Below, one piece after another: positions 1 through 25,610 of a stretch of 64,000 bases of DNA (within the stretch, counting starts at the first letter, position 1; each line of letters opens with the position of its first letter). The notes under the pieces were generated by a model. That model ran no database searches and was not told the origin of the DNA. It worked only from the letters and a program-made list of their open reading frames with translations. Made by a program: the position numbers and the translations under genes. Source of the DNA: an uncultured Candidatus Saccharibacteria bacterium (GTDB lineage: Bacteria > Patescibacteriota > Minisyncoccia > Phycocordibacterales > DSPV01); NCBI GenBank assembly GCA_964574355.1, contig CAZNMD010000003.1, positions 5,316-69,315 of the forward strand. Direction: 5' to 3'.

Positions 1-3000
1 TGTGGGCAAAGCCAACAAGTCTTGTCGCGGGCGCACCGTTTATTTCAAAAGCAACAAATTCTGGTGGGGGGCAGGGGTGGTCGTTCGGTTTGCATAACGG
101 TACAGTGAGTAGTCTTAATTTTACGGTGTATGGATTTACGGTAAGTGATCTAACGGTAACAACAGTATCTGGAACTGTTGTTGTAGATGAGTGGGCTCAT
201 TATGTTGTGACGTGGGATGGGACAAATCAGTCGAGCGGTGTGAAGGTTTATAAAAATGGAGCCCTTCTTTCGACTGTTATTTCTCAAAATGGTGGTTCTT
301 CTAGTGCTCAGAGTGATGTTTCGAGAGATTTAAAATTTGCTCGAGAGAGTGGGTATGGCTCGAATTATTTCAATGGAGCCCTTGACGATGTTCGAATTTA
401 TAATCGGGTACTCGCAGAAAGTGATGTTCAAGGATTGTATGGAATGATTCATACTCCAAGTGGTCCACCCTCCGGTGATACGAGCGCACCTTCTGTTCCT
501 TTTAGTGTTTCTGCTCTTCTTGGTTCTCCTTCGGAAGCGACTATTGCATGGAGTGCTTCATCTGACGACGTTGGAGTAGTGGGGTATCGTGTCTATCGAA
601 ATGCAACATTACTTACGAGTGTAACAGGAACTACTTTTTTTGATACGGCCCTCTCTTCCAATACAACGTATACATATACGGTTTCTGCGTATGATGCGGC
701 GGGTAATGTATCTTTGCCTTCAGTTGCGGCAGTGGTGACGACACCGCTTCCGGTTACTCCGACCTATAGTCTTACTGTTTCAAGATCTGGTACAGGAACA
801 GGATCGGTGATTGGTAGTGGCATTACTTGTGGTACAGATTGTAGCGAGTCTCTCGTTGGTGGGAGCAGCGTGTTGTTACAAGCAAATCCGGGATCAGGTT
901 CATCTTTTGGGGGATGGAGTGGGGCGTGTACAGGTACAGGTTCATGTAGCTTTTTGATGAATAGTAATACTACGGTCCAAGCACTTTTTTCTGGAAGCGT
1001 ATCTTCGTCTCTTACTGCTCCTGTGAATCTTCGTGCTCACGAGACACATCAGGACGCTTCGTTGTATGGATTTGAGTTTCGGTGGGATGATCCTTCAAAA
1101 GGATTAATGGATGGATTTTTAGTTGAAAAATCTACGGATGGAGTAATGTACGAATTTGTGGCTACTACTCCCTATAACGATACGCATTACACAATAACGG
1201 TACCGAATGGTACGACTAATTGGCTTCGAATAAAAGCTTTCAAAGGAGGTGTCTATTCGGAACCAACGGCGGCAATGAAATTTACAACCATTATTGCTCC
1301 GTTGTACTACAAGGTCGCAGCAACCGAAAGTGGTAAGGTGCTGCTCACCTGGCGAGACATTTCAACTGATGAAACTGGTTTTATGATTGAGCGCAGTACA
1401 AATGGAAAAGATTTTCAAGTTATTGCCAAAAAACCAACTGCAGATTTTTTAACTCAGTCGTATTATCCAGACAAAATCTTTACTGATGATAATGCAGGAG
1501 CTGGTCTTTTGTTGGGTACAACGTATCACTATCGATTGACTGCCTACAATGCACTTGGTGTGTCTCCCTATCCTGAAGTTTTTGCCGTTGCTCCGGGTAT
1601 GGTTCCTGCGGCACCTTTGGCTACCCTTACTCTTACAAAAGATACAACGAATGGTGTAACTCCAAATACCGTACTTATTCAGGTGACCGATAATTCAAAT
1701 AATGAACAAGGCTTTGTTGCTGAACGGTCAACTGACGGGGTGACATGGACGCTCGCGGGGACCGTGTCTGCTGCGGCGGGCGAAAAGTGGATGTATGATC
1801 GAGGAATTACCCCCGGTGTTACATACCAGTACCGAATCGCTGCCTACAATCAGACGGGACGTTCGTCGTATGTAATGAAAACTATCTCTATACCCGCAGT
1901 TCCTCCTGTTGGAACGCGTTTGTGGTATGTGTCAAAAGGAGCTTTGGGGAGTCCAACGGGTGCGTCTTGGACAAATGCATGGAGAAGTTTAAATGAAATT
2001 AACTGGGTAGCTATAAAGCCAGGAGATACGTTGTATCTTGATGGTGGAACATACAATGAAGTTTTGTATGTATATAGTTCCGGTACAGTTTCTCAGCCGG
2101 TCACGATTCGTCCTGGTTCGGCATCGCCTTCTCCTTCCGGTCATAGTAGTCGTGTTGTTGTAAATGGTATACAAATTCGAGCGAAGAATGTGGTTGTTGA
2201 TGGCGGTTTGCAGCCGTCATTTGTTCCGGTACGAGCCTATGACATCGTTCCAAATATCAATATGGAAGTCACTAATTGTCCAAATTCGTGCGTATTTTCT
2301 TCAGACGCTGAGGGAATTACGGTGCGGTTTCTTAATGTGCATCATCCTGCTGTGTTGGGGGCCAATGGTATTTCTTTGGTAGGGAACAATGCTGATCGCT
2401 TAACTATTTACGGTAATCATATTCACGATATAACTCAAGATGGTATTGGATATCAAACTGGAGTTGGTGCAGGATTTGATTCTATTAAAGTTTCTTTCAA
2501 TCTCATTGAAAGAACAAACGATGATGGTATTGAGGCTGGCGGACATGCAACAATTAACAATAATGTTATTTCGGGAAATGGTGTTGCTGGAATTGGTCAT
2601 CCTGACGGTATGCAGCTGAAGGGTGACTATATAAAAATTTATAATAATTCAATTTATAATCGTTCTCGTTCGTCGTATGTTATTTCGATTGAAACCTATG
2701 GTCCAACATCCGGTCACTGGCATATTTTTAATAACCAACTTTATTTTTCAACATTAGCGGGAGGCAAAGCGGCTACCGCCTCAGAAGGTATTTTCTTGGG
2801 AGCACGTTCCCAGAAAGGGAATATTGTTTCGTTTCAAACAGAACAGGTATGGGACGATATTATTATTGCAAATAATACATTCGTTAATTTGCAAAATAGT
2901 AGTGTTATTGTTTTTGGCACTCGTGTTGAAGAGGTGGCGAAGGTTAGAATTTTACAACTTCTTATTGCTAATAATCTTTCATATAACAATACGGGTACAA

Positions 3001-5345: not shown

Positions 5346-5437
5346 GTGTCCGGTCGTTAAGAGATCTTTACAGTTCTTGTGTATAAACAGAGATTGTTTG
5401 TCACCTATACACGGTATACTGAGAATACTTTCATCTT

Positions 5438-7867
5438 ATGAATAAAGAAGACGCGTTCATTCTTTGGTATAAAGATCTTTCAATTGCCGATGTTGCTTTT
5501 GCGGGCGGTAAAAATGCTGCCCTAGGAGAAATGGTAAGTAATCTTGGAGCAATGGGTATTTCTGTGCCGAACGGATACGCAGTCACCGCAAAAGCCTATC
5601 GTTACTTTCTTGAAGCAACAGGGCTAAAAGATAAAATTGCTCATATTCTTTCTGATTTAAATACAAGTGATATCCAAAACCTCCAAGCAAAAGGGAGAGA
5701 GGTAAGAGAAACTATCTTAGCGGCAACTATCCCGAAAGATCTCGATGATGCGATTCGGGTGGCGTACGCTGAAATGGAAAAGATGTATGGGGTCAATACT
5801 GACGTTGCTGTTCGTTCGTCAGCTACAGCAGAAGATTTGCCCGGAGCATCATTTGCTGGTCAGCAAGAGACTTATTTGAATGTTGTAGGAGCTGACGCTG
5901 TTATGGTTGCAACAAAAAAATGTATTGCGTCTCTGTTTACCGATCGTGCTATTTCTTATCGTGTTGATAAGGGATTTTCGCATACAGATTCAGCGCTTTC
6001 GGTAGGTGTTCAAAAAATGGTTCGTTCAGATATGGGGGCTTCAGGAGTTGCTTTTTCAATTGATACAGAAACAGGTTTTGATAAGGTGGTGGTCATTAAT
6101 GCGTCTTATGGTCTTGGAGAAATGGTGGTGCAAGGGAAAGTAACACCGGATGAATTTACTGTTTTTAAACCAACGCTTCAAGAAGGGTATCGTTCGATTA
6201 TTGCTCGCGATTTGGGGCCAAAAGAAGTAAAGATGATATATGATGGCTCGTCGACGAAAATTATTGATACACCAGACGAAGATCGAAAGCGTTTTAGTTT
6301 AACTGACGATGAGATTTTAAAACTTGCCGATTGGGTAACAAAAATCGAAACCTATTTTTCCAATAAGCATGGACATTATCAACCGATGGATACTGAGTGG
6401 GCAAAAGATGGTATTACCGGAGAGTTGTTTATTGTTCAGGCGCGCCCAGAAACAGTGCACGCGATGAAGGATAAGAACATAATGAAAACGTATCGGTTGA
6501 AAGAGAAAGGGAAAGTTTTGGTCACGGGAACCGCCGTTGGAAGCAAGATCGCAAGTGGTAAGGTCCGCGTTATTAAAGATGCGTCAAAGATAGGTGAGTT
6601 CCAAAAAGGAGAAGTGTTGGTCACAGAAATTACTGATCCTGATTGGGAGCCAATTATGAAAATTGCTTCAGCGATTGTGACTGATAAGGGTGGTCGTACA
6701 TCGCATGCCGCAATTGTGTCACGCGAACTTGGAATTACCTGCGTTGTTGGTACTGAAAAAGCAACTACTGTTCTTCAGACGGGTCAGGATGTTACCGTCG
6801 ATTCTTCGAGTGGTAAAACAGGTTTCATTTATGAGGGGGTTGTGCCATTTGATGTTGTTGAAGAGCGTCTCGATACGATTCCAACAACACGGACAAAAAT
6901 CATGTTGAATATCGGTTCACCAGAAGAAGCGTTTGAAAAATATCAGCTTCCGGTTCAAGGTGTTGGATTAGGACGACTTGAATTTATTATCATGGGCCAT
7001 ATTCAGATTCACCCAAACGCGCTCATTGATTATGAAAAAATAAAGGCTGAAATGGGGAATGATGAGTATAAACAGAAAGTCATTCGAAAGATTGATGAAA
7101 TGGCACCAAATTATCCTGACAAGAGAGACTTTTATGTTGATGAATTAGCCGAAGGAATTGGAAAAATTGCAGCTGCATTTTACCCACATGAAGTAATCAT
7201 TCGTTTTTCTGACTTTAAAACAAATGAGTATAGGACGCTTGTTGGAGGAGAGTTGTATGAACCTCATGAGGAAAATCCAATGATTGGGTGGCGTGGTTCG
7301 TCGCGTTATTACGATCCAAAATTTAAGGAAGCGTTCGGTCTTGAAGTGAAGGCCATGAAGAAGGTTCGCGAGGGTATGGGTCTTAAAAATGTTGTTGGGC
7401 TTATTCCTTTTTGTCGCACGGTAGAGGAGGGACAAAAGGTTGTTGAAACAATTAAAGAATTTGGCCTTGATCGAGCCTCTGATCCTTCATTTAAGTTGTA
7501 CCTTATGTGTGAGATACCTTCGAATGTTATTTTGATTGAGCAATTTTTGGAAATTTTTGATGGTATGTCAATTGGATCAAATGATCTTACCCAGTTAACG
7601 CTTGGTATGGATCGTGATTCTGGTATTGTGTCGCATATTGGTAATGAGCAAAATCCGGCAGTTAAAAAATTAATTCAAGATACAATTTGGAAATGCAAAG
7701 AGCGTGGCAAGTATATTGGGTTATGTGGTCAAGGGCCATCAGATTTTCCTGAGTTTGCGCAATTTCTGGTGGAAAGCGGTATCCAAAGTATGTCACTAAA
7801 TCCAGATACGATTTTGAAAACACTTATTGCGACCGCTGAGACTGAAAAGAGAGTAGGGTTTAGATAG
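5438..7867 (+). CDS. ppsA: Phosphoenolpyruvate synthase (pyruvate, water dikinase).
   Basis: 809 aa. N-terminus MNKEDAFILWY…VAFAGGKNAALGEM. The PEP-utilising mobile domain with its catalytic His is present (GGRTSHAAIVSRELGITCVVG). The C-terminal PEP/pyruvate-binding TIM-barrel region is present. Confidence 0.9.
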   Translation: MNKEDAFILWYKDLSIADVAFAGGKNAALGEMVSNLGAMGISVPNGYAVTAKAYRYFLEATGLKDKIAHILSDLNTSDIQNLQAKGREVRETILAATIPKDLDDAIRVAYAEMEKMYGVNTDVAVRSSATAEDLPGASFAGQQETYLNVVGADAVMVATKKCIASLFTDRAISYRVDKGFSHTDSALSVGVQKMVRSDMGASGVAFSIDTETGFDKVVVINASYGLGEMVVQGKVTPDEFTVFKPTLQEGYRSIIARDLGPKEVKMIYDGSSTKIIDTPDEDRKRFSLTDDEILKLADWVTKIETYFSNKHGHYQPMDTEWAKDGITGELFIVQARPETVHAMKDKNIMKTYRLKEKGKVLVTGTAVGSKIASGKVRVIKDASKIGEFQKGEVLVTEITDPDWEPIMKIASAIVTDKGGRTSHAAIVSRELGITCVVGTEKATTVLQTGQDVTVDSSSGKTGFIYEGVVPFDVVEERLDTIPTTRTKIMLNIGSPEEAFEKYQLPVQGVGLGRLEFIIMGHIQIHPNALIDYEKIKAEMGNDEYKQKVIRKIDEMAPNYPDKRDFYVDELAEGIGKIAAAFYPHEVIIRFSDFKTNEYRTLVGGELYEPHEENPMIGWRGSSRYYDPKFKEAFGLEVKAMKKVREGMGLKNVVGLIPFCRTVEEGQKVVETIKEFGLDRASDPSFKLYLMCEIPSNVILIEQFLEIFDGMSIGSNDLTQLTLGMDRDSGIVSHIGNEQNPAVKKLIQDTIWKCKERGKYIGLCGQGPSDFPEFAQFLVESGIQSMSLNPDTILKTLIATAETEKRVGFR

Positions 7868-12843: not shown

Positions 12844-12870
12844 AGTATACTATTATTGACGATTTGTCAA
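12844..12870. promoter_or_regulatory. Divergent promoter region containing the palindrome TTGACGATTTGTCAA. It supplies a -35 on both strands: the minus-strand reading is TTGACA-N15/16-TATACT for 11853..12794, and the plus-strand -35 TTGACG serves murC.
   Basis: Read directly. Confidence 0.35.
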
Positions 12871-12900
12871 TAAAGCAGTTTTCTGTTACACTCGTTTTTA

Positions 12901-14243
12901 TGAAAGTTCTAAGGGCAAAAAAACCTTCAAAACAGTCGCTTAAAGTAAAAAGTTTCATTGAGCATCAACATGTCCACTTTGTGGGTATTGGTGGTTCTGG
13001 CATGTCTTCTTTGGCTCAACTTTTACATACTGATGGGCGGGTGATTACAGGGTCTGATTTAAAACCCTCAAAGGTAGCGGAGACTTTAGCGATTGCCGGA
13101 ATAAAAATTCTAATTGGTCAAGATGAGCATGCTATACCTCGGGGTGTCGAAGCTATTATTTATAGCGCCGCGATTCCCGAACTTGATCCAAAATTTTTTA
13201 AACAGCTTAAAAAAATTGGCGTTCCTTTGTATGAATATCATGAAGCTGTAGGTGAGTATGCAAATCAAAAACACACGGTTGCTATTGCTGGTACTCATGG
13301 AAAAACGACAACAACGGCAATGATCGCTTCAATTTTAAAAGCGGCGGATATTGGCGCGAGCGCTCTTGTTGGTGGCGTAATGAATGATACGGGTAGTGGC
13401 GTCTATGCGGGAACAGGAGATACGTTTGTGGTTGAAGCTGATGAGTATAAAAATGGCTTTTTGCATTTATCGCCATCAGTGTTGGTTATTACCAACATTG
13501 ATCATGATCACGTAAATTTTTTTACTGATTTGTCAGCTGTTCAAAACTCATTTAAGCAACTAATACGAAAAGTTCCTGTTGATGGAGTTATTATTTGTAA
13601 TCCGGAGGATCCTCATGTGGCTCCGGTCATTGCAAAAACAAAACATCCGGTTATTGATTACACATCGGTTTCGCTCGATGGAGTTGATCTTAAGGTTCCA
13701 GGTGAACATAATCGTAATAATGCGAAAGCGGCACTTGCGGCGGTTGGTATTCTTGGTATTTCTCCAGAAATTGCAACAAAAACACTTTCACATTTTTCAG
13801 GTACAGGTCGACGATTTGAATATAAAGGAAAAATGAAAAACGGTGCGCTTGTATACGATGATTATGCCCATAATTCTCAAAAGGTTTCTGCTGCGATTGC
13901 AGGTGCGCGCGAAGCATTTCCAGATAAAAAAGTAACAGTTGTTTTTCAGCCACACCTCTTTAGCCGAACACGCGCTTTCTTGGGAGATTTTGCGAAAGCG
14001 TTATCTTTGGCAGATTCCATTATTGTCACTGATATTTATGCAGCTCGTGAGAAATTAGATTTATCAGTTACCGCGAAAGATCTTGTTAGAGAGATACATA
14101 AACTTAATAAAAACGTTTCGCATAGTTCCGTTTTTGGGGAAGTGGTGAGTGAATTATGTATGAATGCGAGTGAAAAAGATTTGATTATGACGATGGGGGC
14201 CGGAGATATTACAAAGGTGTCAGATTTGTTGGTAGCTGCTTAG
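12901..14243 (+). CDS. murC: UDP-N-acetylmuramate--L-alanine ligase.
   Basis: …HFVGIGGSGMSSLAQLL…, …AIAGTHGKTTTTAMIASIL…. The ORF track extends to TTG 12864, but that codon sits inside the promoter palindrome, so ATG 12901 is preferred. Confidence 0.85.
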
Positions 14244-14244
14244 C

Positions 14245-14925
14245 ATGAGTACTCTCTACGTCGTCGCTACGCCTATAGGAAATCTTGAGGATATATCACC
14301 TCGAGCGCTTCGGATTTTGTCTGAAGTCGATGTCATTCTTTGTGAGGATACGCGAGTTACTAGAAAACTGTTATCGCATTTTGGAATTTCTACCAAAACA
14401 ATTTCATACCACGCAAGAACGGAAGTTTTGAAACTTGACTACGTTCTTTCTTTTTTTGAAGAAGGGAAAAATGTTGCACTTGTATCAGATGCCGGTACCC
14501 CAGCAATATCAGATCCGGGGGCAATTTTGGTTAAGGAAGTTCGAAAAAAGTTTCCAGAGGTGAATATTGTGGCTATTCCAGGGCCATCAGCGCTTACCGC
14601 AGCAGTATCAATTGCTGGTCTTTTGGTTTCAGATTTTACATTTCTTGGATTTTTGCCTCATAAAAAGGGTAGAGAGACGTTATTTAAAGAGATTAGAGAG
14701 TCTTCACGAACGATGGTGTTTTACGAGTCTCCCCATCGAATTGAAAAAACGCTTGAATCATTATCGATATATCTCGCTCCTGATCGTACTGTTAGTATTT
14801 GTCGAGAACTGACAAAAATGTATGAAAGTGTTATTTCTGGTAATCCTGATTTTGTAAAAAATCATTTTGCGACACATACAGATCAGGTGAGGGGAGAATT
14901 TGTTGTTATTGTTTCTCCAAAATAA
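14245..14925 (+). CDS. rsmI: 16S rRNA (cytidine1402-2'-O)-methyltransferase, tetrapyrrole-methylase family.
   Basis: MSTLYVVATPIGNLEDISPRALRIL…VILCEDTRVTRKLL. It starts 1 nt after the murC stop. Confidence 0.85.
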   Translation: MSTLYVVATPIGNLEDISPRALRILSEVDVILCEDTRVTRKLLSHFGISTKTISYHARTEVLKLDYVLSFFEEGKNVALVSDAGTPAISDPGAILVKEVRKKFPEVNIVAIPGPSALTAAVSIAGLLVSDFTFLGFLPHKKGRETLFKEIRESSRTMVFYESPHRIEKTLESLSIYLAPDRTVSICRELTKMYESVISGNPDFVKNHFATHTDQVRGEFVVIVSPK

Positions 14926-14928
14926 AAC

Positions 14929-14957
14929 CCCCTGTTCGTCTCGTAAAAACAGAGGGT
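14929..14957 (-). terminator. Terminator of the minus-strand gene 14965..15342. Convergent with the rsmI end.
   Basis: CCCCCTGTT…AACAGAGGG stem with one mismatch. The T-run is on the minus strand. Confidence 0.45.
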
Positions 14958-14964
14958 TGGTCAC

Positions 14965-15342
14965 CTAAGATACTAGGTGAGTTTGTAGGATTTCTTCGTA
15001 GTTTAGTAGTTGATGGTGTCCTGGCGGAAATAAAGTAAGATTTTCGCTGTTTGAAAAAAGAACAACTGTACCGTCTTTGGGTTGGGTTTGTTGAAGCTTG
15101 AGGTCTTCAAATTTTTGCATGACAGTAGAGGTTTCTCCTGATGGTGCCCAGCCTCGGCACTCTTTTGAAGCCGCGGTTGGATTACGCAGCTCAAGTAAGG
15201 GGCAAATTTCTACCCAAATCCGATAGGTTCGCCCTTCTTTGTGTGCGAGAACATCTACAATTCTGCCTCGATAGGTGCAATCTCTTGTTTGGCTTTGAAT
15301 ATCTCCACCGATAAAATTTCGGAAATTGATCGGTTCTTTCAC
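14965..15342 (-). CDS. Hypothetical protein, 125 aa.
   Basis: ORF only. No recognisable motif. Confidence 0.4.
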   Translation of the reverse strand: MKEPINFRNFIGGDIQSQTRDCTYRGRIVDVLAHKEGRTYRIWVEICPLLELRNPTAASKECRGWAPSGETSTVMQKFEDLKLQQTQPKDGTVVLFSNSENLTLFPPGHHQLLNYEEILQTHLVS

Positions 15343-15406
15343 GTTACCCTCTCTTTCTAACTACTAGTGTACAACCAAAGGAGATAAGGAGCATGTATGG
15401 TACAAT

Positions 15407-15643
15407 GTGGCCGTATTCATCATTTTTTACGCTATGCGCAGAAAATTAGAACTAATAATCGGTACGCTGTTGCTACTTGTGTTACTGGCAGGAGTTCCTA
15501 CTTCATGGAAGCTTTCGGTTTCCCTTGTTTCGGCTATTATCCTTATTATTTTTGGATTAATTAATCCCAGAAAACATTCAACTGAAACAAAAGATGCAGC
15601 TTTCGTTGAGCATGGACCACTATCAGACGAGACACCAAAGTAA
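15407..15643 (+). CDS. Small membrane protein, 78 aa, with two predicted TM helices.
   Basis: Hydrophobic segments LIIGTLLLLVLLAGV and LVSAIILIIFGLI. Confidence 0.4.
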   Translation: MAVFIIFYAMRRKLELIIGTLLLLVLLAGVPTSWKLSVSLVSAIILIIFGLINPRKHSTETKDAAFVEHGPLSDETPK

Positions 15644-15655
15644 AAAAGAGAAGAG

Positions 15656-16855
15656 ATGCCGTTTTTGGTGATCCATTTTTTGTTTTCTGTTTTTGTTCTT
15701 GCATTTGGGGGAGCTTTTGCGTATGGTTCCTATTTTTATATTCCAGAGCATTATCCAGTGCGCGTTTCTACCCCTGTTGTTTCTGAGATCGTGAAAGAAG
15801 AAAAAGCGAGTGATCATTTGAAAACACCTGTTCCGCTTCGGGCTATTTATATGACAGCCTGTGTTGCTGCAACAAAAGATTGGCGTGCTCGGATTTTGAA
15901 ATTTATTAATGAAACAGAAATTAATGCCATTGTTATAGATGTGAAGGACTATACGGGAACTATTTCTATTCCTGGAGATGAGACAAAACTTCCAGGTATT
16001 GCCGGGAAGGGGTGCAAGGTTCCTGATATGGCGGCGTTTATTGATGAACTCCATGCTCATAATATATATACGATTGCTCGCATTGCTGTGTTTCAAGATA
16101 AATTTTATGCGACAAAGTATCCAGAATTAGCGGTAAAGAAAAAGACTGATACTGCTGTGGTATGGAAGGATAGAAAAGGTTTGCCGTTTATTGATGCTGG
16201 CGCACAACCGTATTGGGATTACATTGTTGCTATCGGAGAAGCTTCGTACGATGCTGGTTTTGATGAACTTAATTTTGATTACATACGATTCCCGACTGAT
16301 GGAAATATGAGTGATATTTATTATCCTTGGAGTAACGCGACAGTAACGGCTGACCGTGCTTTAGGTAAGGCAAAAGTGGTCACCTCCTTTTTTGAACATT
16401 TGCGTGCGTCGTTTGCAACAACAGGACCAAAACTCTCAGCTGATTTATTTGGTATGACAACCACAAATCCAGACGATTTAGGTATTGGTCAGCTGTTAGA
16501 ATCTGCTGCACCAAATTTTGATTACATTGCGCCAATGGTGTATCCATCTCATTACCCGAAAGGATTTGAAGGGTACGAAGATGTAAATAAGCATCCGTAC
16601 GAGATTGTAAAGATTTCTATGGATAAGGCTGTTTCAAGATTAATTTTAGCGTCAACTACTCCGTCAAAGCTTCGGCCATGGCTTCAGGATAATGATTATC
16701 CGGTGCCCTATAGTGCTGATATGGTTCGTGCCCAGATTCAAGCAACATATGATGCGGGGCTCGATTCATGGATGCTTTGGGATCCTTCAAATGGATATAC
16801 CCGAGAAGCTCTTTTTGGACCAGAGGCAGAATTGAGAAATAAAATAGTGGAGTAA
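15656..16855 (+). CDS. Membrane-anchored putative TIM-barrel glycoside-hydrolase-like protein (GHL / DUF4015-like).
   Basis: N-terminal TM helix. …INAIVIDVKDYTGTISIPG… and …FDELNFDYIRFPTDGN…. Family assignment is from memory. Confidence 0.45.
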   Translation: MPFLVIHFLFSVFVLAFGGAFAYGSYFYIPEHYPVRVSTPVVSEIVKEEKASDHLKTPVPLRAIYMTACVAATKDWRARILKFINETEINAIVIDVKDYTGTISIPGDETKLPGIAGKGCKVPDMAAFIDELHAHNIYTIARIAVFQDKFYATKYPELAVKKKTDTAVVWKDRKGLPFIDAGAQPYWDYIVAIGEASYDAGFDELNFDYIRFPTDGNMSDIYYPWSNATVTADRALGKAKVVTSFFEHLRASFATTGPKLSADLFGMTTTNPDDLGIGQLLESAAPNFDYIAPMVYPSHYPKGFEGYEDVNKHPYEIVKISMDKAVSRLILASTTPSKLRPWLQDNDYPVPYSADMVRAQIQATYDAGLDSWMLWDPSNGYTREALFGPEAELRNKIVE

Positions 16856-16890
16856 CTCCTTCATGAGTTTTTAATTTTCCACTTTCTCTA

Positions 16891-16919
16891 TAGACAAGTC
16901 TGTATGGTAGGTATACACT
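16891..16919 (+). promoter_or_regulatory. Promoter-like TAGACA-N17-TACACT.
   Basis: Read directly upstream of the GC-rich island at 16.9–17.3 kb. Confidence 0.35.
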
Positions 16920-16925
16920 TATCTA

Positions 16926-17233
16926 CCGGGTAACGGGCTTTATCGGACGTTAGCTTACTGGCTAGCGGAGCCTGTGTTTCAATACAATCAGTGATGGAAA
17001 GATAGTTGCTATGAGTGAATCCAAGAAGGATGGTCCTAAACAGGTCGGAAAAGCGACAGCTGCTCAAATTCTCGGTGATTACGGTAGGGCAGCGGGCCCT
17101 CCTCGCCAAATCGTTTCTGAACCGGGACAGCCGATTAGGGAAGAGAGGCGCTGTATTACACCTCTGAACGCTCATCTGTTCGGCTGTTCCAGTGTCATCC
17201 ATCGGACCTAGAGTAAGGTCTTTCGTGTCGTTT
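16926..17233 (+). other. G+C-rich, apparently structured transcribed island. It is either a structured ncRNA or the leader plus coding region of a 66-aa GC-rich small protein (ORF 17011..17211, preceded by a GGAAAG RBS).
   Basis: Its composition differs from the flanks. It lies between a promoter-like element and a strong terminator. No tmRNA, RNase P P4 or SRP domain-IV signature could be confirmed by eye. Confidence 0.3.
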
Positions 17234-17274
17234 ACCCCCGAATCCAGTAGCAGGATTCGGGGGTGAATTTTTTT
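17234..17274 (+). terminator. Rho-independent terminator.
   Basis: CCCCCGAATCC-agtagca-GGATTCGGGGG 11-bp perfect stem, then TGAA and TTTTTTTT. Confidence 0.75.
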
Positions 17275-17304
17275 TGTGCATGAATAAGGTACTTCCCTTC
17301 GGGA

Positions 17305-19287
17305 ATGTCGGCTATAATAGAGATGAATATGGATGGGAACCCTATTTGTTATTTTGCTGAAACAGATGCGCGTAATAAGCGTGTAAAGTTTGGCATAAAA
17401 GAAAGAGATCGTACACGCCATATGTACGTCATTGGAAAGACGGGTATGGGTAAATCAACCTTGCTTGAAAATATGGCAATTCAAGATATGCAGCGAGGTG
17501 ATGGTATTGCGTTTATTGATCCTCACGGAAAAACAGCAGACCTTCTTTTAGAGTATGTTCCTGAATCGCGCATTAAAGATGTTTTGTATTTTGCACCGTT
17601 TGATCTTGAGTACCCCATTTCTTTTAATGTGATGGAAGATGTCGGTATGGATAAGCGGCACTTGGTGGTTTCTGGTCTCATGAGTGCGTTTAAGAAAATT
17701 TGGCTCGATGCGTGGTCTGCCCGTATGGAGTACATATTGAGTAATATTCTTTTGGCACTTCTTGAATATCCTGGTTCAACAATTCTTGGAGTGAATCGTA
17801 TGCTTGCTGATAAGGATTATCGCAAGAAGGTTGTTGAAAACGTGAAGGATGTATCAGTTCGAGCATTTTGGCTTGATGAGTTTGCAAAGTATGGTGATCG
17901 ATATATGCAAGAGGCGGGAGCAGCAATTCAAAATAAAGTTGGTCAATTTGTAAGTAATCCGCTGATTCGTAATATTATCGGTCAGCCACAATCAACATTT
18001 GATTTACGAGCAATGATGGATCAGAGAAAGATTATCATTGTGAATCTTTCAAAAGGTCGGGTTGGTGAACAGAACGCAAATCTTTTGGGTAGTATGTTTG
18101 TGACCAAGTTGTATCTTGCGGCAATGTCTCGTGCTGATTTAAGTGATGCTGCACTTGCTCGTTCGCCAAATTTTAATTTGTATGTGGATGAGTTTCAATC
18201 GTTTGCTAATGAGTCCTTTGCAAACATTCTTTCTGAGGCTCGCAAATATCGTCTTTCTTTAACGATTGCCCATCAATACATTGAACAAATGTCGGAAGAA
18301 GTTCGAGCGGCGGTATTTGGAAACGTGGGGACGATGGTTGTGTTTCGTGTGGGTGCATATGATGCTGAAATTCTTGAGAAGGAATATGCTCCACGATTTA
18401 CTGCTGAAGATATTGTAAATCTTGGTTTCGCTCAGATTTATTTGAAACTCATGATTGATGGTGTTACTTCGCCGCCATTTTCTGCAACAACATTGCCGCC
18501 ACTTGAAAAGGCGCCGGTTTCTTTTCGCGATGATGTTATTGAATGGACAAGACGAACCTATGCAAGAAATCGTGCAGAGGTTGAAGTTGATATTCGTACC
18601 TGGAGTGAAAATGAGCGACCAGCTGAAGGATCGCATGACGCGAAGCGAAAACCTCAACCGTCCCGTGGAGTTTCTGATAGAGCGCCAGATGCCCGTGTAC
18701 GAACCGCAGAAGTTCGAAGACAGCCTATCCCTCCTCGTGAATATCGTTCGGTTCAAGTCCCTGAACTTTCTGGGAGCGCGGTTTCAAAAGCTACTCCTCC
18801 TGTTGTTGAGAGCCCGGTTGTGGCACCAAATGTGTCATTAACACCTTTACCAAAAATAGAAGGTGGGGAAGGAGGTTTTGTTTCTCTTAAAGATCTTAAG
18901 TCTGGGGCGGTAGTTTCTACATCCGTCTCTCCTCGTGCTCCTAAAATAATTTCAAGAGAAAAACCTGTTATATCTCAACAGCCCTCTGTTCGTGTTGATC
19001 AAGGTTCAAAAAAGGAAACGTTGGTTGGTGCTCAAGATCAAAAATCGGTTCTTCGAGACGCTCTTGCATCAGTATTGAAGAATAACGCTCCAATAGATCA
19101 TCAGCATCAACCATCAGGACATGTTCAAAAAAATCAATCTGTACATTCAACAACCTCGGGTCATCATCGGCCACATCCTCCCCAGGTTAGTTCTTCTGGA
19201 GAAGTGCATGAAACTAAGTCAAAGGCAGGAGAAGTTTCTGTTGATGAAGTAAGGCGTATTTTAGATATTCCTCGACCAAAAGAATGA
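17305..19287 (+). CDS. Soluble FtsK/TraD/VirD4-like (type-IV-coupling-protein-like) P-loop ATPase with a C-terminal low-complexity tail of about 250 aa.
   Basis: Walker A VIGKTGMGKST. Walker B NLYVDEFQSF. …RKYRLSLTIAHQYIEQM… resembles the TrwB_AAD_bind / TraG-D_C family. There are no N-terminal TM segments. The tail is P/S/V/K/R-rich. Confidence 0.6.
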   Translation: MSAIIEMNMDGNPICYFAETDARNKRVKFGIKERDRTRHMYVIGKTGMGKSTLLENMAIQDMQRGDGIAFIDPHGKTADLLLEYVPESRIKDVLYFAPFDLEYPISFNVMEDVGMDKRHLVVSGLMSAFKKIWLDAWSARMEYILSNILLALLEYPGSTILGVNRMLADKDYRKKVVENVKDVSVRAFWLDEFAKYGDRYMQEAGAAIQNKVGQFVSNPLIRNIIGQPQSTFDLRAMMDQRKIIIVNLSKGRVGEQNANLLGSMFVTKLYLAAMSRADLSDAALARSPNFNLYVDEFQSFANESFANILSEARKYRLSLTIAHQYIEQMSEEVRAAVFGNVGTMVVFRVGAYDAEILEKEYAPRFTAEDIVNLGFAQIYLKLMIDGVTSPPFSATTLPPLEKAPVSFRDDVIEWTRRTYARNRAEVEVDIRTWSENERPAEGSHDAKRKPQPSRGVSDRAPDARVRTAEVRRQPIPPREYRSVQVPELSGSAVSKATPPVVESPVVAPNVSLTPLPKIEGGEGGFVSLKDLKSGAVVSTSVSPRAPKIISREKPVISQQPSVRVDQGSKKETLVGAQDQKSVLRDALASVLKNNAPIDHQHQPSGHVQKNQSVHSTTSGHHRPHPPQVSSSGEVHETKSKAGEVSVDEVRRILDIPRPKE

Positions 19288-20738
19288 TAAAAATTTTGTT
19301 TATAACTACATTCGTTATATATGCGTTTACGCAAAACGCATATGCCCAGGTAGTGATAAACGAGATTATGTATGATGTTGCGGGAGGTGACGATGGCCAC
19401 GAATGGATTGAGGTAAAAAATACAGGTACTACGGCTATCGATCTTTCCTTGTATCGCTTTTTTGAGGCGGGAGTACATCATAAACTTAGTGCTGTTTTAG
19501 GTACGACTCTTTCTTCTGGCGGGTATGCAGTTATTGCTGATGATGCAGTAAAATTTCAAATTGATTTTCCTTCTTTTTCCGGAGTTCTTTATGACAGTTC
19601 ATTTTCTCTTTCAAATGTGGGGGAAACACTTTCTATAAAGCTTGACGATAGTGTTATTGATTCTGTGAGTTATGTTCCGAGTGAGTTAGCTAATGGTACT
19701 GGTGCCACACTTCAGAAGGTTGGATCGTCTTTTGTTTCGCTTGCTGCTACTCCTGGAGCTTCATCTGATGCAGGGAATCCTGTTGTGAATGAACCACCTG
19801 GGACCGAAGATCCAAATACTCCAAGTAATCAATCTTCACAAAATTCATCGAGTGGAAGTGGAGGAACAGTAGCTGATCCTGATCCGACTCGAATTGTTCC
19901 AGATGCGGGGGCGGATCAAACTGTGATTGCGGGCGCGCCTGTCCTTATGTCTGGTAAAGCCAGTATTGGAGGAAAACCAGTTTCTGATACAGCACGCTTT
20001 TTGTGGAATTTCGGAGACGGCGCCACGTTTATTGGCCGTACCACAAATCATGTGTATCGATCGCCTGGACGATATGTGGTCTCGCTTTCTGTGTCTTCTG
20101 GTGAAACGAGTGCTACCGATATGCTTACCATCACTGTTGTTGAATCGCCAATATCGATTGCGTCAACGGTTCCTGGTCCGGAGGGGTATGTCTCCTTATT
20201 CAATGCCTCGAAAGGTGTTGTTGATATTTCAACATGGTATCTTCAGGTTAAAGAACAGATATTTGTTTTTCCTCCCGGTACGTTTATTGCTGGTTCATCG
20301 GTTGTGCGTTTTGATGCGGCTATAACCAGGCTTTCTTTCGCTTCACCTCAAGAAGTGTTTTTGCGTTTTCCAAATGGAAAAGAGGCTTCTGTTGGTATAC
20401 AGGATGTTGTTACCCCAAAAGCTGCTGTTTCTGTTCAGGCGACCCCAAAACCTCACGTTGATCAATCAAAAATGACAACAGCTCCTGAAAAGGGTCTTTC
20501 AAAGAGCCTTGTTGTGGAAGCTGTTCCAGAAACACGCAAAGAAGAGGATGTTACAGATAAACTTTTACAAGGGGCATTAGTGGAAGAAACGATTGATCAG
20601 GGTCAAACACAAAAGAGTGGGATGTTTTGGTGGTATGGTGCACTTGTACTGGTTTTGGCTCTTGGCACGGTCGGAGTGATTTTGATTGAGAAAAAGAAGC
20701 CAGTGGACGAGTTTGAGATAATTGAGGCAGACGAGTAG
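19284..20738 (+). CDS. Secreted lamin-tail-domain (LTD)–PKD–LTD-like protein with a C-terminal TM anchor.
   Basis: Signal peptide MIKILFITTFVIYAFTQNAYA. LTD motif VVINEIMYDVAGGDDGHEWIEVKNTGTTAIDLS. PKD motif FLWNFGDGATF…HVYRSPGRY. C-terminal TM WWYGALVLVLALGTVGVILI. Its start overlaps the upstream stop (ATGA). Confidence 0.65.
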   Translation: MIKILFITTFVIYAFTQNAYAQVVINEIMYDVAGGDDGHEWIEVKNTGTTAIDLSLYRFFEAGVHHKLSAVLGTTLSSGGYAVIADDAVKFQIDFPSFSGVLYDSSFSLSNVGETLSIKLDDSVIDSVSYVPSELANGTGATLQKVGSSFVSLAATPGASSDAGNPVVNEPPGTEDPNTPSNQSSQNSSSGSGGTVADPDPTRIVPDAGADQTVIAGAPVLMSGKASIGGKPVSDTARFLWNFGDGATFIGRTTNHVYRSPGRYVVSLSVSSGETSATDMLTITVVESPISIASTVPGPEGYVSLFNASKGVVDISTWYLQVKEQIFVFPPGTFIAGSSVVRFDAAITRLSFASPQEVFLRFPNGKEASVGIQDVVTPKAAVSVQATPKPHVDQSKMTTAPEKGLSKSLVVEAVPETRKEEDVTDKLLQGALVEETIDQGQTQKSGMFWWYGALVLVLALGTVGVILIEKKKPVDEFEIIEADE

Positions 20739-20747
20739 TATAAGGGG

Positions 20748-21887
20748 ATGGTACCAAAACGCATTCTTATATTTTCATATGCATACGCACCTCTTGTTGG
20801 AGGGGCAGAAGTTGCAGTTCGTGAAATTACTGATCGTATTTCATCAAGCGAAATTGAATTCGATATGGTCACTGCGCGACCAAAAAATACAGTACCTGTT
20901 GAGAAAATAGGTAACGTCACCGTATATCGTGTTGGTGGTATTGGCGGGTTATGGAAATTTTTATTTCCGTATATTGCTTTTAGGAAAGCAAAAAAACTTC
21001 ATCAGAAGAAACCGTATCAAGGGGTGTGGTCTATTATGGCAGCCTATGCTGGTTTTGCTACAAGTTTTTTCAAAAAAAGATTCCCAGATGTTCCTTTTAT
21101 ATTAACGCTTCAAGAGGGGGATCCTCCAGAATACATTAGGCGAAAGGTTCGATTTGTTCGTCCGTTGTTTCGTACTATTTTTAAACGAGCTGACAAAATT
21201 CAGGCTATTTCTTCGTATCTTGGAATATTTGCAAAAGAAGAAGGTGCTAAAGTTGTACCTAGTGTGATTGGTAATGGTGTTGATGTTTCTTTATTTTCTA
21301 AAAAAATTACAGTGAGTGAGCGTCAGGCACTTCGTCGACCGTATGGTATTGATGATAACGATATTGTGCTTTTTACGGCATCTCGGCTAGTTACCAAAAA
21401 TGCGGTTGATGTGATTATGAGATCTCTCGTTTTACTTTCGCCTACCGTGAAGCTTGTTATCGCTGGTGATGGTCCCGAACGTCTGCGGCTTGAATCTTTG
21501 GCAAAAGAGCAGGGAGTTGCTAATCGAGTTTGTTTTTTGGGAACAGTTTCTTATGCCGAGTTGCCTCGATGGTATCAGGCAGCTGATATCGTTACTCGTC
21601 CGAGCCGATCTGAAGGATTTGGAAATGTTTTTGCAGAAGCGATGGCGGCAGGTGTTCCAGTGATTGCCACGTCAGTTGGAGGAATTCCCGATATTGTTAT
21701 AGATGGAAATACAGGCCTTGTTTGTCAGGTTGATGATCCAAAAGATTTGGCTCACAAGATTGAGACGCTCATCGCGGATCAATCCTTAAGACAACGTCTC
21801 GTTCAAAACGGTCTTATCCTTGTTGGAGAAAAATATGATTGGGAGGTCATTGCCCAAAGGATGAAAAAAGAAGTCTTCGGGGTGTAG
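20748..21887 (+). CDS. Glycosyltransferase family 4 (GT-B).
   Basis: …SRSEGFGNVFAEAMAAGVPVIATSVGGIPDIV…. Confidence 0.8.
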   Translation: MVPKRILIFSYAYAPLVGGAEVAVREITDRISSSEIEFDMVTARPKNTVPVEKIGNVTVYRVGGIGGLWKFLFPYIAFRKAKKLHQKKPYQGVWSIMAAYAGFATSFFKKRFPDVPFILTLQEGDPPEYIRRKVRFVRPLFRTIFKRADKIQAISSYLGIFAKEEGAKVVPSVIGNGVDVSLFSKKITVSERQALRRPYGIDDNDIVLFTASRLVTKNAVDVIMRSLVLLSPTVKLVIAGDGPERLRLESLAKEQGVANRVCFLGTVSYAELPRWYQAADIVTRPSRSEGFGNVFAEAMAAGVPVIATSVGGIPDIVIDGNTGLVCQVDDPKDLAHKIETLIADQSLRQRLVQNGLILVGEKYDWEVIAQRMKKEVFGV

Positions 21888-23873: not shown

Positions 23874-25610
23874 ATGCAACAGAATATACAAAAACGTGCA
23901 CCGGTGTTGGTTCTGGGAGATAGTATGCGAAGTACGCTCGCGGTTGTTCGATCGTTGGGGCGACGGGGTATTTCTGTGCATCTTGGTGTGTCTTACGTAA
24001 CCCTTTCTGTTACACGTTCCAAGTATGTGAGGCGTGTCATTGTATTACCCTCGGAGAAACACCACCGTTCTGCCTGGCTTCAGACGCTCCTTAAGATTGT
24101 CGAGGAGACGTCATACTCGCTCTTGATTCCGACGACTGAAGGGGTTGCGCTTCCGGTGATTGAAGACCAAAAAGTCATTGAGCCTTTTGTTCGCCTTGCC
24201 GTCCCTTCCTTTTCTTTGTTTGAAGAGACGTTTGATAAAAGAAAAACGGTCGAACTTGCAAAGGCTTCTAATGTCCCTTTTCCAAAAACAGCAATCATAG
24301 AAACAGAACAGATGTTGGAAGAAATTCTAGGAAAGGCAACATTTCCCCTTGTTATTAAACCAGCATTTTCAAAGAAAACGACCAAAGAAAACCAGGTTGG
24401 GCTGAGTGTGAGCGTTGCGAAAACGAAAGAGGAGGCTCGTGAACTGGCTTTGGTTCGATTACGTCAGGTGCCGGTTCTTTTTCAGGAGTATGTTGCAGGG
24501 GTTGGTGTTGGGCAAGAATTTTTGTGTGACAATGGAAAAATTCTTCTTTCATTTCAACATGAGCGAGTCCGAGAACAGTCAGGAAGTGGGGGAAGTACAT
24601 ATCGGGTGAGTGCTTCACTTCATCCAGGCATGCTAGAAGCGTCAAAGAAAATGCTTGAAAAGATTAACTGGACGGGGGTTGTTATGGTTGAGTATCGTTG
24701 GAATAAAGATACTGATTCTTTTTTTCTTATAGAGATTAATGGGAGGTTGTGGGGTTCGTTGCCGCTTCCAGTCGCTCTTTCGGTTGATTTTCCGTATGCC
24801 ATGTATTCTTTTTTTGTCGAAGGGAAAAAAGATTTTTCGGGAACGTATAAAACAGGAGTGTATGGGCGTGATGTTTTTTCCGATGTTCGTCTTTTGTTAA
24901 GGTTGTCACGTTCTTTGGGAGTCATGTTTTTGATGAAGGAATTTTTTGTTGCTTTTAGTCGGATTATGATGGGGCGCGAACGGTGGGATATGGTTGCTTT
25001 TGACGATATGTATCCTGCACTTAAAGAGACTATGCGAGTTGCTAAAAAAGAGTTTGAACAATTGAGTCGTGCTGTAGGTGTTGTGGTACGAAACAAGGTA
25101 CGTCGTTTATCGGTTACCAAGCGATTAAAAACCGAGTGTATTAATTCTCTTGCTGAGGCAAAAAATATTTTGTTTGTGTGTTATGGGAACGTTAACCGTA
25201 GTGTTTTCGCTGAGCAGTATACCCGAAGTATTCTTTCCGAAAAACAAAAAGAATTTTTTACAGTACGGTCGGCAGGAACAATTTCAAAAGAGGGCAGAGA
25301 GGCCTCTTTTGAGGCACAAGAAATCGCGAAAAAATATGGTGTGTCGCTCGATACACACCGTTCTGTTTCGGTTTCCCCAAAGATTATTGATGAAGCTGAT
25401 CTTATTTTTTATGTTGATACGAAAACTCGTAATGAATTGTTGAGTCGTTTTTCTGGAGCGGCAAAAAAAATGTATCCATTAAGTTTTCTTGCCAGTGACG
25501 TGCCGGAAGAAATTGATGATCCTTATGGTAAGGATAGTGATTACTTTAGAAGGGTATTTGATTATATAAAGAAGAGCGTTGATGCTTTGTATGTACATAT
25601 GAAGCCGTGA
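23874..25610 (+). CDS. Fusion protein: an N-terminal ATP-grasp ligase domain (about 420 aa) joined to a C-terminal low-molecular-weight protein-tyrosine-phosphatase domain.
   Basis: ATP-grasp end motif …FLIEINGRLWGS…. LMW-PTP P-loop ILFVCYGNVNRSVFAEQY (C-x5-R-S) and a DPYG general-acid motif. Confidence 0.7.
   Translation: MQQNIQKRAPVLVLGDSMRSTLAVVRSLGRRGISVHLGVSYVTLSVTRSKYVRRVIVLPSEKHHRSAWLQTLLKIVEETSYSLLIPTTEGVALPVIEDQKVIEPFVRLAVPSFSLFEETFDKRKTVELAKASNVPFPKTAIIETEQMLEEILGKATFPLVIKPAFSKKTTKENQVGLSVSVAKTKEEARELALVRLRQVPVLFQEYVAGVGVGQEFLCDNGKILLSFQHERVREQSGSGGSTYRVSASLHPGMLEASKKMLEKINWTGVVMVEYRWNKDTDSFFLIEINGRLWGSLPLPVALSVDFPYAMYSFFVEGKKDFSGTYKTGVYGRDVFSDVRLLLRLSRSLGVMFLMKEFFVAFSRIMMGRERWDMVAFDDMYPALKETMRVAKKEFEQLSRAVGVVVRNKVRRLSVTKRLKTECINSLAEAKNILFVCYGNVNRSVFAEQYTRSILSEKQKEFFTVRSAGTISKEGREASFEAQEIAKKYGVSLDTHRSVSVSPKIIDEADLIFYVDTKTRNELLSRFSGAAKKMYPLSFLASDVPEEIDDPYGKDSDYFRRVFDYIKKSVDALYVHMKP

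Follow-up and report, generated by a model that had tools for sequence, protein, structure and literature searches.

A membrane anchor-less relative of type IV coupling ATPases and its frequent genomic neighbour, an exported LTD-PKD-LTD protein, in Paceibacteria-type Patescibacteria

The 64-kb stretch analysed here (referred to as the window) belongs to contig CAZNMD010000003.1 of an uncultured Candidatus Saccharibacteria bacterium and carries, at 17305-20738, two overlapping genes encoding a VirD4/TraD/TrwB-type ATPase devoid of transmembrane (TM) segments and an exported protein that combines lamin-tail domains (LTD) with a PKD domain. The two plus-strand open reading frames (ORFs), 17305..19287 (660 aa) and 19284..20738 (484 aa), were taken from the ORF list and coincide with those of an earlier interpretation made from the letters alone (the sequence-only reading). 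The stop/start overlap proposed there was confirmed by reading the bases: the TGA of the ATPase gene shares bases with the ATG of the LTD gene in an ATGA at 19284-19287 (positions 19281-19295 are GAATGATAAAAATTT). Comparison with related loci indicates that the two genes are linked far beyond chance, yet separable, the arrangement being frequent and not obligatory. Conservation of ATPase residues was scored in an alignment of 66 homologues, and structures are AlphaFold2 models, whose confidence is expressed as the predicted local distance difference test score (pLDDT). The pair is composed of the following parts:

17305..19287, + strand: ATPase gene, TM-less VirD4/TraD/TrwB type, 660 aa
17305..18609, + strand: ATPase core, aa 1-435, RecA-like nucleotide-binding domain with an inserted all-alpha domain (helices at ~aa 115-239), pLDDT ~90
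17434..17460, + strand: Walker A, GKTGMGKST, aa 44-52, invariant in the 66 homologues
18184..18204, + strand: Walker B, VDEFQSF, aa 294-300, with V294, D295, E296, F297, Q298 and F300 invariant
18250..18279, + strand: RLSLTIAHQY, aa 316-325, following ARKY, with R313, K314, Y315, L317, L319, A322, H323, Q324 and Y325 invariant
18610..19284, + strand: disordered C-terminal tail rich in S, V, P, R and K, aa 436-660 (from composition and pLDDT <50)
19033..19083, + strand: tail helix 1, aa 577-593, ...SVLRDALASVLK, family motif L-[RK]-x-A-L-x-x-V, pLDDT ~79
19231..19272, + strand: C-terminal peptide, aa 643-656, EVSVDEVRRILDIP, consensus E-[VI]-P-E-[ED]-x-L-[RK]-x-x-L
19284..20738, + strand: LTD-PKD-LTD gene, exported product with a C-terminal membrane anchor, 484 aa
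19284..19349, + strand: signal peptide, aa 1-22, hydrophobic helix at aa 2-15, probable cleavage site ...NAYA/QV
19347..19748, + strand: lamin-tail domain 1, aa 22-155 (best Pfam LTD stretch aa 17-131; beta-sandwich, pLDDT >90)
19893..20141, + strand: PKD domain, aa 204-286 (Pfam PKD_4 and PKD; Foldseek)
20151..20399, + strand: lamin-tail-like domain 2, aa 290-372 (second Pfam LTD stretch; beta-sandwich, pLDDT >90)
20622..20690, + strand: C-terminal TM helix, aa 447-469 (hydropathy peak 2.19; predicted helix)
20691..20735, + strand: short cytoplasmic tail, IEKKKPVDEFEIIEADE region, family motif [FYW]-x-[IL]-[ILV]-[DE]

The ATPase was matched above gathering scores, in each case weakly, by the Pfam families T4SS-DNA_transf (28.7 bits, E-value 8e-7), TrwB_AAD_bind, TraG-D_C and DUF87, the matches to T4SS-DNA_transf and TrwB_AAD_bind spanning aa 29-349; its scores against the NCBIfam TraD and VirD4 models were far under the cut-offs. 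Searched by sequence, the PDB returned TrwB as sole match, around the P-loop. Foldseek comparison of the core placed TrwB first (E 2e-10, target-normalised TM-score 0.61, ~415 aligned columns), then HerA, DotL, Cag-beta and VirB4, with target-normalised TM-scores of 0.40-0.46 for the HerA folds, below that of TrwB. Among plasmids, tblastn detected an 812-aa type IV coupling protein (T4CP) of Embleya that is 31% identical along 93% of the domain (E 5e-55) and whose gene has as neighbours a PrgI-family gene, genes for an ATP-binding protein and a replication-relaxation (relaxase-like) protein, and an NlpC/P60 gene, i.e. a monoderm-type conjugation cluster. Membership of the motor domain in the VirD4/TraD/TrwB clade of T4CPs is thus well supported by the Pfam matches, the TrwB fold of the model and the similarity to the Embleya protein. 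The P-loop domain carries Walker A, Walker B and an arginine/sensor strand, and the inserted all-alpha domain and TrwB-like overall fold are present in the AlphaFold model; judged by their residues, the catalytic motifs are intact. RLSLTIAHQY would be the arginine-finger/sensor strand, by likeness to FtsK/HerA/VirB4-class ATPases. Homologues from other species are 60-86% identical to the window protein over the alignment, with a near-invariant core.

Three other assignments were considered and rejected. For a FtsK/SpoIIIE translocase, the Pfam FtsK_SpoIIIE match was limited to the P-loop (aa 32-57, E 0.099), and no FtsK appeared among the top 50 folds. For a HerA/MADS-type defence or repair ATPase, PADLOC matches were weak (mad8 1.5e-13, HerA 1.5e-9) and the gene has no nuclease, Sir2 or DUF4297 neighbour. 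For a phage origin, tblastn matches in phages were merely 22-27% identical, and base composition is even across the window.

The N-terminal membrane anchor of T4CPs is missing from the window ATPase. No TM-like segment was found in it (highest 19-residue Kyte-Doolittle mean 1.32), and an N-terminal extension is excluded because stops occur in frame ~24 nt 5' of the ATG. An exhaustive search of 1.84 billion representative proteins yielded 5,934 clusters at E<=1e-30, which fall into two architectures. In the closest relatives (>=55% identity) the ATPase domain begins at residue 2-20, as in the window protein. None of 166 short-form sequences has a TM-like segment. From ~56% identity down, many relatives (47-56% identical) place the ATPase at residue ~300-470, after an N-terminal TM helix and a module of ~350 aa assigned to DUF8128 by precomputed Pfam annotation. 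Alignment of the window protein to these long forms involves their C-terminal half alone, and so does its match to PHROG 5156 (E 4e-59, profile positions 391-805 of 824). One long form, a named Patescibacteria protein (P0320, MFA7308455.1), has a T4SS-pilin-like gene and another gene for a DUF8128-T4CP in its vicinity (locus L094; T4SS, type IV secretion system), and the N-terminus of the Embleya T4CP (WP_331738717.1) is homologous to the DUF8128 module (E 1e-14). Since the TM helix followed by DUF8128 is the arrangement of true T4CPs, the window ATPase is, on sequence comparison, a derived short form from which the module has been lost. Neither the window nor the 80 related loci encode the TM + DUF8128 module as a separate gene; the DUF4015 protein encoded upstream of the ATPase differs from this module. 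The closest relative in the plasmid collection is also soluble and anchorless: a 395-aa homologue (41% identity, E 5e-83) on the non-mobilizable alphaproteobacterial plasmid NZ_CP081110.1 of Sulfitobacter mediterraneus (99994-101181, L091), amid recombinase and transposase genes.

The tail of the ATPase (aa 436-660, 225 aa) consists of 13% S, 12% V, 11% P, 8% R and 7% K, and is modelled with pLDDT <50 save for two short helices. Across 80 loci its length ranges from 118 to 359 aa and its sequence varies freely, two short motifs being kept. In the 66 aligned sequences, L583 and L587 of the first (L-[RK]-x-A-L-x-x-V, window aa 583-590) are invariant, and E643 and L653 of the second (window aa 643-653, with a predicted helix at aa 646-652) are at least 90% conserved. 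By eye, the C-terminal peptide was seen in nearly all 80 loci, and its presence showed no correspondence with LTD adjacency. TraD C-terminal residues bind TraM, and the C-terminal extension of DotL binds adaptors; by analogy, the tail is probably a flexible tether of the same kind. As the peptide is kept with or without an LTD gene, it would probably dock a partner common to all these organisms and not the LTD protein specifically. Neither ATPase-LTD fusions nor C-terminal TM anchors were found among long-tailed relatives, whose long tails are disordered. Some distant short-form relatives (P0278, P0301, P0315, P0339) carry a zinc-ribbon-like CxxC-x(12-20)-CxxC within the disordered tail.

In the LTD protein, Pfam recognised LTD in two stretches (E 1e-20; 74.3 bits vs a cut-off of 34.3) and PKD (E 7e-14). 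In its AlphaFold model a signal helix (aa 2-15) precedes three beta-sandwich domains; two linkers are disordered, and the TM helix (aa 447-469) lies where hydropathy also places it. The PKD domain resembles that of collagenase ColG (Foldseek TM-score 0.77, target-normalised). As in secreted LTD proteins, a signal peptide is present, with an A-x-A-Q pattern conserved in the family, and the residues of the LTD signature E-I-x-Y-[DN]...E-[WF]-[IV]-E-[LV]-x-N are conserved. Homologues of the same architecture (~450-520 aa, 28-70% identity) were found in Taylor-, Lloyd-, Kaiser- and Nomurabacteria-type genomes. The fold search returned solely multi-Ig (immunoglobulin) surface proteins, S-layer (surface-layer) components and PKD domains, and no enzyme domain. 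According to the model, this is a Sec-exported type I membrane protein with three Ig-like domains on a disordered stalk, a single TM helix and a short, conserved cytoplasmic tail of acidic/hydrophobic character.

The TM helix is followed by a basic patch and, in 62/120 family members, by a terminal [FYW]-x-[IL]-[ILV]-[DE] motif (DEFEIIE in the window; EWDIIEE, GYTIIEE and DFKIID among P0121-P0240), which by the positive-inside rule would be cytoplasmic. The LTD cytoplasmic motif is unlike known C-terminal sorting signals whose motif lies ahead of the TM helix. A relation of this motif to ATPase adjacency was considered and rejected: motif-less proteins adjoin the ATPase gene, and motif-bearing ones are unlinked to it. 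Shortened partners were also observed next to the ATPase gene, consisting of LTD1 and the TM anchor alone in L019 (7792-8652) and L058 (7787-8620), with 277-286 aa in these two, or being without LTD1 in L032 and L037, from which the ectodomain appears modular.

The description of the two proteins given in the sequence-only reading stands in nearly all its parts. The Walker A/B and RLSLTIAHQY motifs are at the residues indicated and invariant in the 66 homologues; coupling-protein membership, for which the absence of a significant profile match would have been fatal, is borne out by the Pfam, fold and Embleya comparisons, and the Pfam models proposed as a check (TrwB_AAD_bind, TraG-D_C, T4SS-DNA_transf, LTD, PKD) were all matched. 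The lack of N-terminal TM helices is corroborated by hydropathy, the upstream stops and the short forms, and the signal peptide, two LTD modules, PKD domain and C-terminal TM anchor by Pfam, AlphaFold and hydropathy. The P/S/V/K-rich tail is indeed disordered and of that composition, its length having been overestimated (about 250 aa against ~225 aa measured).

Linkage of the two genes was measured in both directions, using retrieved loci that reach 4-10 kb on each side of the matched gene. The forward test used 80 species-level loci centred on the ATPase gene, of which 77 had enough downstream DNA, and a six-frame hidden Markov model search with an LTD-family profile; the reverse test used 80 metagenome loci centred on LTD genes (62 with enough upstream DNA) and a scan from a 12-sequence LTD alignment. 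In the forward direction an LTD-PKD-LTD gene was found in 29/77 loci, always downstream and on the same strand, directly adjacent in 28 and one gene off in L033; ATPase-LTD gaps are mostly -20 to +20 nt. In the reverse direction the ATPase core was directly upstream and on the same strand in 44/62 loci (71%) and absent from 18, the upstream ATPase gene being kept across lineages whose LTD proteins share 30-40% identity. Some of the unlinked LTD genes are placed between pfkB and ychF, and elsewhere a DUF218 or AAA_18 gene intervenes. When the ATPase cores were placed in a neighbour-joining tree, LTD-linked loci turned up in every major branch, which suggests that the arrangement is ancestral, with repeated loss or relocation. 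The sequence-only reading had made the case depend on co-occurrence in relatives, and both counts establish it. In L088, L089 and L090, which are close relatives, the gene order is the same throughout.

ATPase relatives are widespread: one was found in at least 577 stretches (one genome per species), and a word-indexed search gave at least 8,000 matches, those listed showing 57-85% ATPase-domain identity to Taylorbacteria, Paceibacterota and Parcubacteria proteins.

The pair lies in a longer conserved gene order. Its immediate neighbours in the window are:

15656..16855, + strand: DUF4015 putative glycoside hydrolase, membrane-anchored, 399 aa, upstream (Pfam DUF4015, E 2e-88)
16856..17304, + strand: leader/intergenic region of 449 nt between the DUF4015 and ATPase genes
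20748..21887, + strand: glycosyltransferase of family 4 (GT4), downstream, heading a run of glycosyltransferase genes (Pfam Glycos_transf_1, E 4e-43)

A DUF4015 homologue was found upstream and on the same strand in 57/80 loci (at position -1 or -2 in 50), and a GT4 homologue downstream of the ATPase gene in 50/80; MurC and RsmI genes are also often upstream. The order shared by the window (12864-21887) and loci L001-L090 is MurC - RsmI - (small minus-strand gene) - DUF4015 - ATPase - (LTD) - GT4 - more GT4. The window as a whole is a surface-glycan island, with many GT4 and family 2 glycosyltransferase genes, a polysaccharide deacetylase, a Wzy_C-TPR ligase-like protein, sugar-nucleotide enzymes and Mur ligases; DUF4015 may be the wall hydrolase of a secretion apparatus or just a member of the glycan cluster. 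Unrelated window neighbours are likewise 0-2 nt apart or overlapping (a single base lies between the end of MurC at 14243 and the start of RsmI at 14245), and because such tight spacing is common among unrelated genes of this compact genome the ATGA overlap is weak evidence of anything beyond co-transcription. Two further genes of the window were noted: at the edge of the island, a giant surface protein (90-5345, + strand, 1,751 aa) with Laminin_G_3, fn3, InlB B-repeat-like and peptidoglycan-binding domains, and, within the glycan cluster, an ATP-grasp domain fused to a low-molecular-weight phosphotyrosine phosphatase (23874-25610, + strand, 578 aa), an unusual combination.

The leader region upstream of the ATPase gene contains several features of its own:

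16891-16919, + strand: promoter-like site (promoter scan)
~16920-17030, + strand: conserved hairpin region
17011-17211, + strand: small ORF, 66 aa, MSESKKDGPKQVGKATAAQILG...HLFG...
17230-17268, + strand: strong intrinsic terminator followed by seven T, 30 nt upstream of the ATPase ATG

Conservation in the close relatives L088 and L089 covers a hairpin region formed by the first ~170 nt, and a few compensatory changes preserve the terminator stem; the fold z-score is -3.1. A counterpart of the 66-aa ORF was detected by phmmer in L088 (E 4e-16, differing by an in-frame 3-nt indel) and, at greater distance, in L001 (E 7e-5), and L089 has none; the ORF may be either a genuine small gene or a side effect of conservation at the RNA level, and the 449-nt leader may be an attenuator/leader or a small RNA. 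Rfam gave no match to the 449-nt region at E<=1, a whole-window scan at Rfam gathering thresholds and a tRNA/tmRNA scan found nothing, and blastn and nhmmer searches of the leader against the 80 species-level loci detected no conservation beyond close relatives. In related loci the ATPase gene is commonly separated from the DUF4015 gene by a gap of 250-600 nt. In L090 this gap holds an IS200-like Y1 transposase gene (5424-5882), and a similar Y1_Tnp gene lies near an unlinked LTD gene in L086 and L087.

T4CPs and the related FtsK and HerA proteins translocate DNA, and the sequence-only reading saw in the pair a two-part DNA uptake/export or surface-attachment module, in which the LTDs would catch DNA outside and the TraD-like motor would move it in or out. 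The best structural matches of the ATPase (TrwB and HerA), the strongly non-random pairing and the occurrence of LTDs in the extracellular nuclease ExeM, to whose N-terminus the LTD protein has a weak NCBIfam match, are consistent with such a module. However, the LTD protein has a single TM helix, so the pair provides no membrane conduit, and it has no nuclease domain. Of the ComEC and type-IV-pilus genes that the sequence-only reading had proposed to look for elsewhere in the genome, none was found in the 64-kb window, and no nuclease, ComEA, VirB4 or relaxase gene was found among its Pfam-scanned genes either. Channel genes, ComEC/ComEA/helix-hairpin-helix receptor genes and pilus genes, the companions by which a competence system was judged, are absent from the window genes and from the conserved neighbours; the T4SS or relaxase association typical of T4CPs is likewise absent there, the Pfam-annotated relatives L081-L090 showing none. 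The ATPase gene is moreover kept without an adjacent LTD gene in ~60% of species, and its tail peptide is conserved whatever the LTD adjacency. As for the idea that bacterial LTDs are often tied to nucleic-acid handling, it proves a weak one: binding of DNA by bacterial LTDs is unproven, and in ExeM the LTD was dispensable for extracellular DNA degradation in vivo, its role being one that "has not yet been elucidated" (PMC6085458). With no channel, nuclease, ComEC, VirB4 or relaxase gene nearby and a pair that separates, the DNA uptake/export module amounts to speculation and is considered very improbable.

The reading preferred here, to which we would give an even chance, is that of an ancient, often retained two-gene unit of Paceibacteria-type Patescibacteria, in which a T4CP-like ATPase and an LTD surface protein serve a cell-surface or host-contact apparatus. 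By analogy with TrwB, the ATPase would probably form a hexameric ring, its tail acting as a flexible tether whose end peptide docks a partner that all these organisms possess. For the LTD protein, its architecture suggests a role at the surface, in binding or adhesion or as a scaffold, and the pair would be co-transcribed at the head of the surface-glycan island, within the block DUF4015 hydrolase - ATPase - LTD - GT4. Our best guess is that the ATPase is an exapted substrate-recruiting or energising coupling ATPase whose machinery is encoded elsewhere, possibly a patescibacterial monoderm-type T4SS, and that the pair is not a self-contained DNA pump. Patescibacteria (candidate phyla radiation) depend on host cells. 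In a cultivated representative, their T4SS is the one apparatus for which genetics has shown that epibiotic growth requires it (cited in PMC12102498).

Several observations weigh against this unit. According to PMC12102498, Ca. Southlakia epibionticum could dispense with its T4CP homologue during epibiotic growth, though not with other T4SS genes. The link of the ATPase to T4SSs is drawn from homology and the adhesin role of the LTD protein from architecture, and a search of the 64-kb window, and of the 80 loci to a distance of 6 kb, revealed no VirB4-like or other related ATPase. The pair can also be separated, 48/77 ATPase loci having no downstream LTD gene and the LTD gene lying between pfkB and ychF in some lineages. 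Finally, the DUF4015 and GT4 genes are no less constant as neighbours of the ATPase gene than the LTD gene, so the ATPase-LTD adjacency may mirror general gene-order conservation and not shared function. This last point leads to a reading in which the two proteins share no function, the ATPase being a housekeeping DNA translocase or remodeller (for example with a FtsK-like role in segregation or division) in a syntenic block and the LTD protein being unrelated to it. The extreme conservation of the core, the presence of the gene in at least 577 species representatives, a synteny that reaches MurD, MurC, RsmI, DUF4015 and GT4 without obvious link to the ATPase, and the tiny gaps or overlaps that also join unrelated neighbours (MurC and RsmI being one base apart) are in keeping with it. 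Conversely, retention of the upstream ATPase gene in 71% of LTD-centred loci, at 30-40% LTD identity, is high for pure drift, and the ATPase is nearest to T4CPs, not to FtsK (FtsK_SpoIIIE E 0.1, P-loop alone), so that a purely housekeeping block appears unlikely while retaining real weight.

The missing anchor of the ATPase raises the question of a split coupling protein, in which the TM helix and cytoplasmic tail (DEFEIIE) of the LTD protein would anchor the hexamer in trans, in place of TM + DUF8128. The short form has indeed lost its own anchor, and its partner, encoded adjacently on the same strand, brings a TM helix and the conserved C-terminal cytoplasmic motif (62/120). Nevertheless, LTD proteins that end after the TM helix, without the motif, also adjoin the ATPase gene (L041, L042, L059, L066), the motif also occurs in LTD proteins whose genes are unlinked to the ATPase gene (P0215, P0238), and most ATPase loci have no adjacent LTD gene; a trans anchor is therefore regarded as decidedly unlikely. 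A more elaborate proposal, which we hold to be a long shot, is that of a two-piece trans-envelope device in which the LTD protein would bind a host-surface or extracellular ligand and dock the T4CP-like hexamer via its TM helix and DEFEIIE-type tail, replacing the TM + DUF8128 anchor and coupling outside contact to ATP-driven recruitment or translocation; together with the DUF4015 wall hydrolase, it would be an accessory module for a T4SS encoded elsewhere.

Returning to the two-gene unit, its description gives the orphan VirD4 family a concrete anatomy for the major Paceibacteria-type form: a soluble protein with a lost anchor, a very strongly conserved core, and a tether with a docking peptide, ancestrally linked to a surface Ig-domain protein inside a DUF4015-ATPase-LTD-GT4 block. 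This anatomy provides testable handles to distinguish an ATPase serving a T4SS from a new surface device or a housekeeping function. If syntenic housekeeping alone were true, the result would still be a useful annotation correction.

Compared with TrwB, TraD and VirD4, the window ATPase has the same fold, made of the nucleotide-binding and all-alpha domains, and the same Walker A, Walker B and ARKY...HQ motifs; as in TraD, it bears a C-terminal extension with a conserved end peptide. It differs from them in lacking the N-terminal TM domain and nearby T4SS or relaxase genes, in its low identity to TrwB (14-17% in structural alignment), and in being encoded by a chromosomal gene that is apparently core to the lineage and not on a mobile element. 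With the DUF8128 long forms it shares the ATPase domain (47-56% identity with patescibacterial ones, 31% with that of Embleya, PHROG 5156 E 4e-59); the latter have a TM helix, DUF8128 and T4SS-type neighbours (L094, Embleya), whereas the window protein begins at the ATPase domain. The LTD protein has in common with the ExeM N-terminus and with PKD surface/S-layer proteins its secreted LTD and PKD Ig-like beta-sandwiches. Unlike other bacterial LTD surface proteins, it has no nuclease, phosphatase or other catalytic domain, and it shows a fixed LTD-PKD-LTD-stalk-TM arrangement of ~450-520 aa, specific to Paceibacteria-type genomes, with a cytoplasmic C-terminal motif.

The nearest known set is that of the orphan patescibacterial VirD4 homologues, which are likewise chromosomal, mostly far from virB4 and possibly exapted. 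Such genes were already published in 2025: that study counts 5,713 VirD4-type homologues in 2,918 Patescibacteria genomes, 148 of them near virB4, and its authors consider exaptation possible (PMC12102498, Microb Genom 2025). The window ATPase gene almost certainly belongs to this published set. A term search of that paper turned up neither the missing anchor nor the tail motifs, and likewise nothing on the LTD partner or on synteny with DUF4015 and GT4. What the present analysis adds is the short form without an anchor and its descent from T4CPs of the DUF8128 type, the two peptides conserved in the tail, and the LTD-PKD-LTD partner with its measured linkage, set in the DUF4015-ATPase-LTD-GT4 block.

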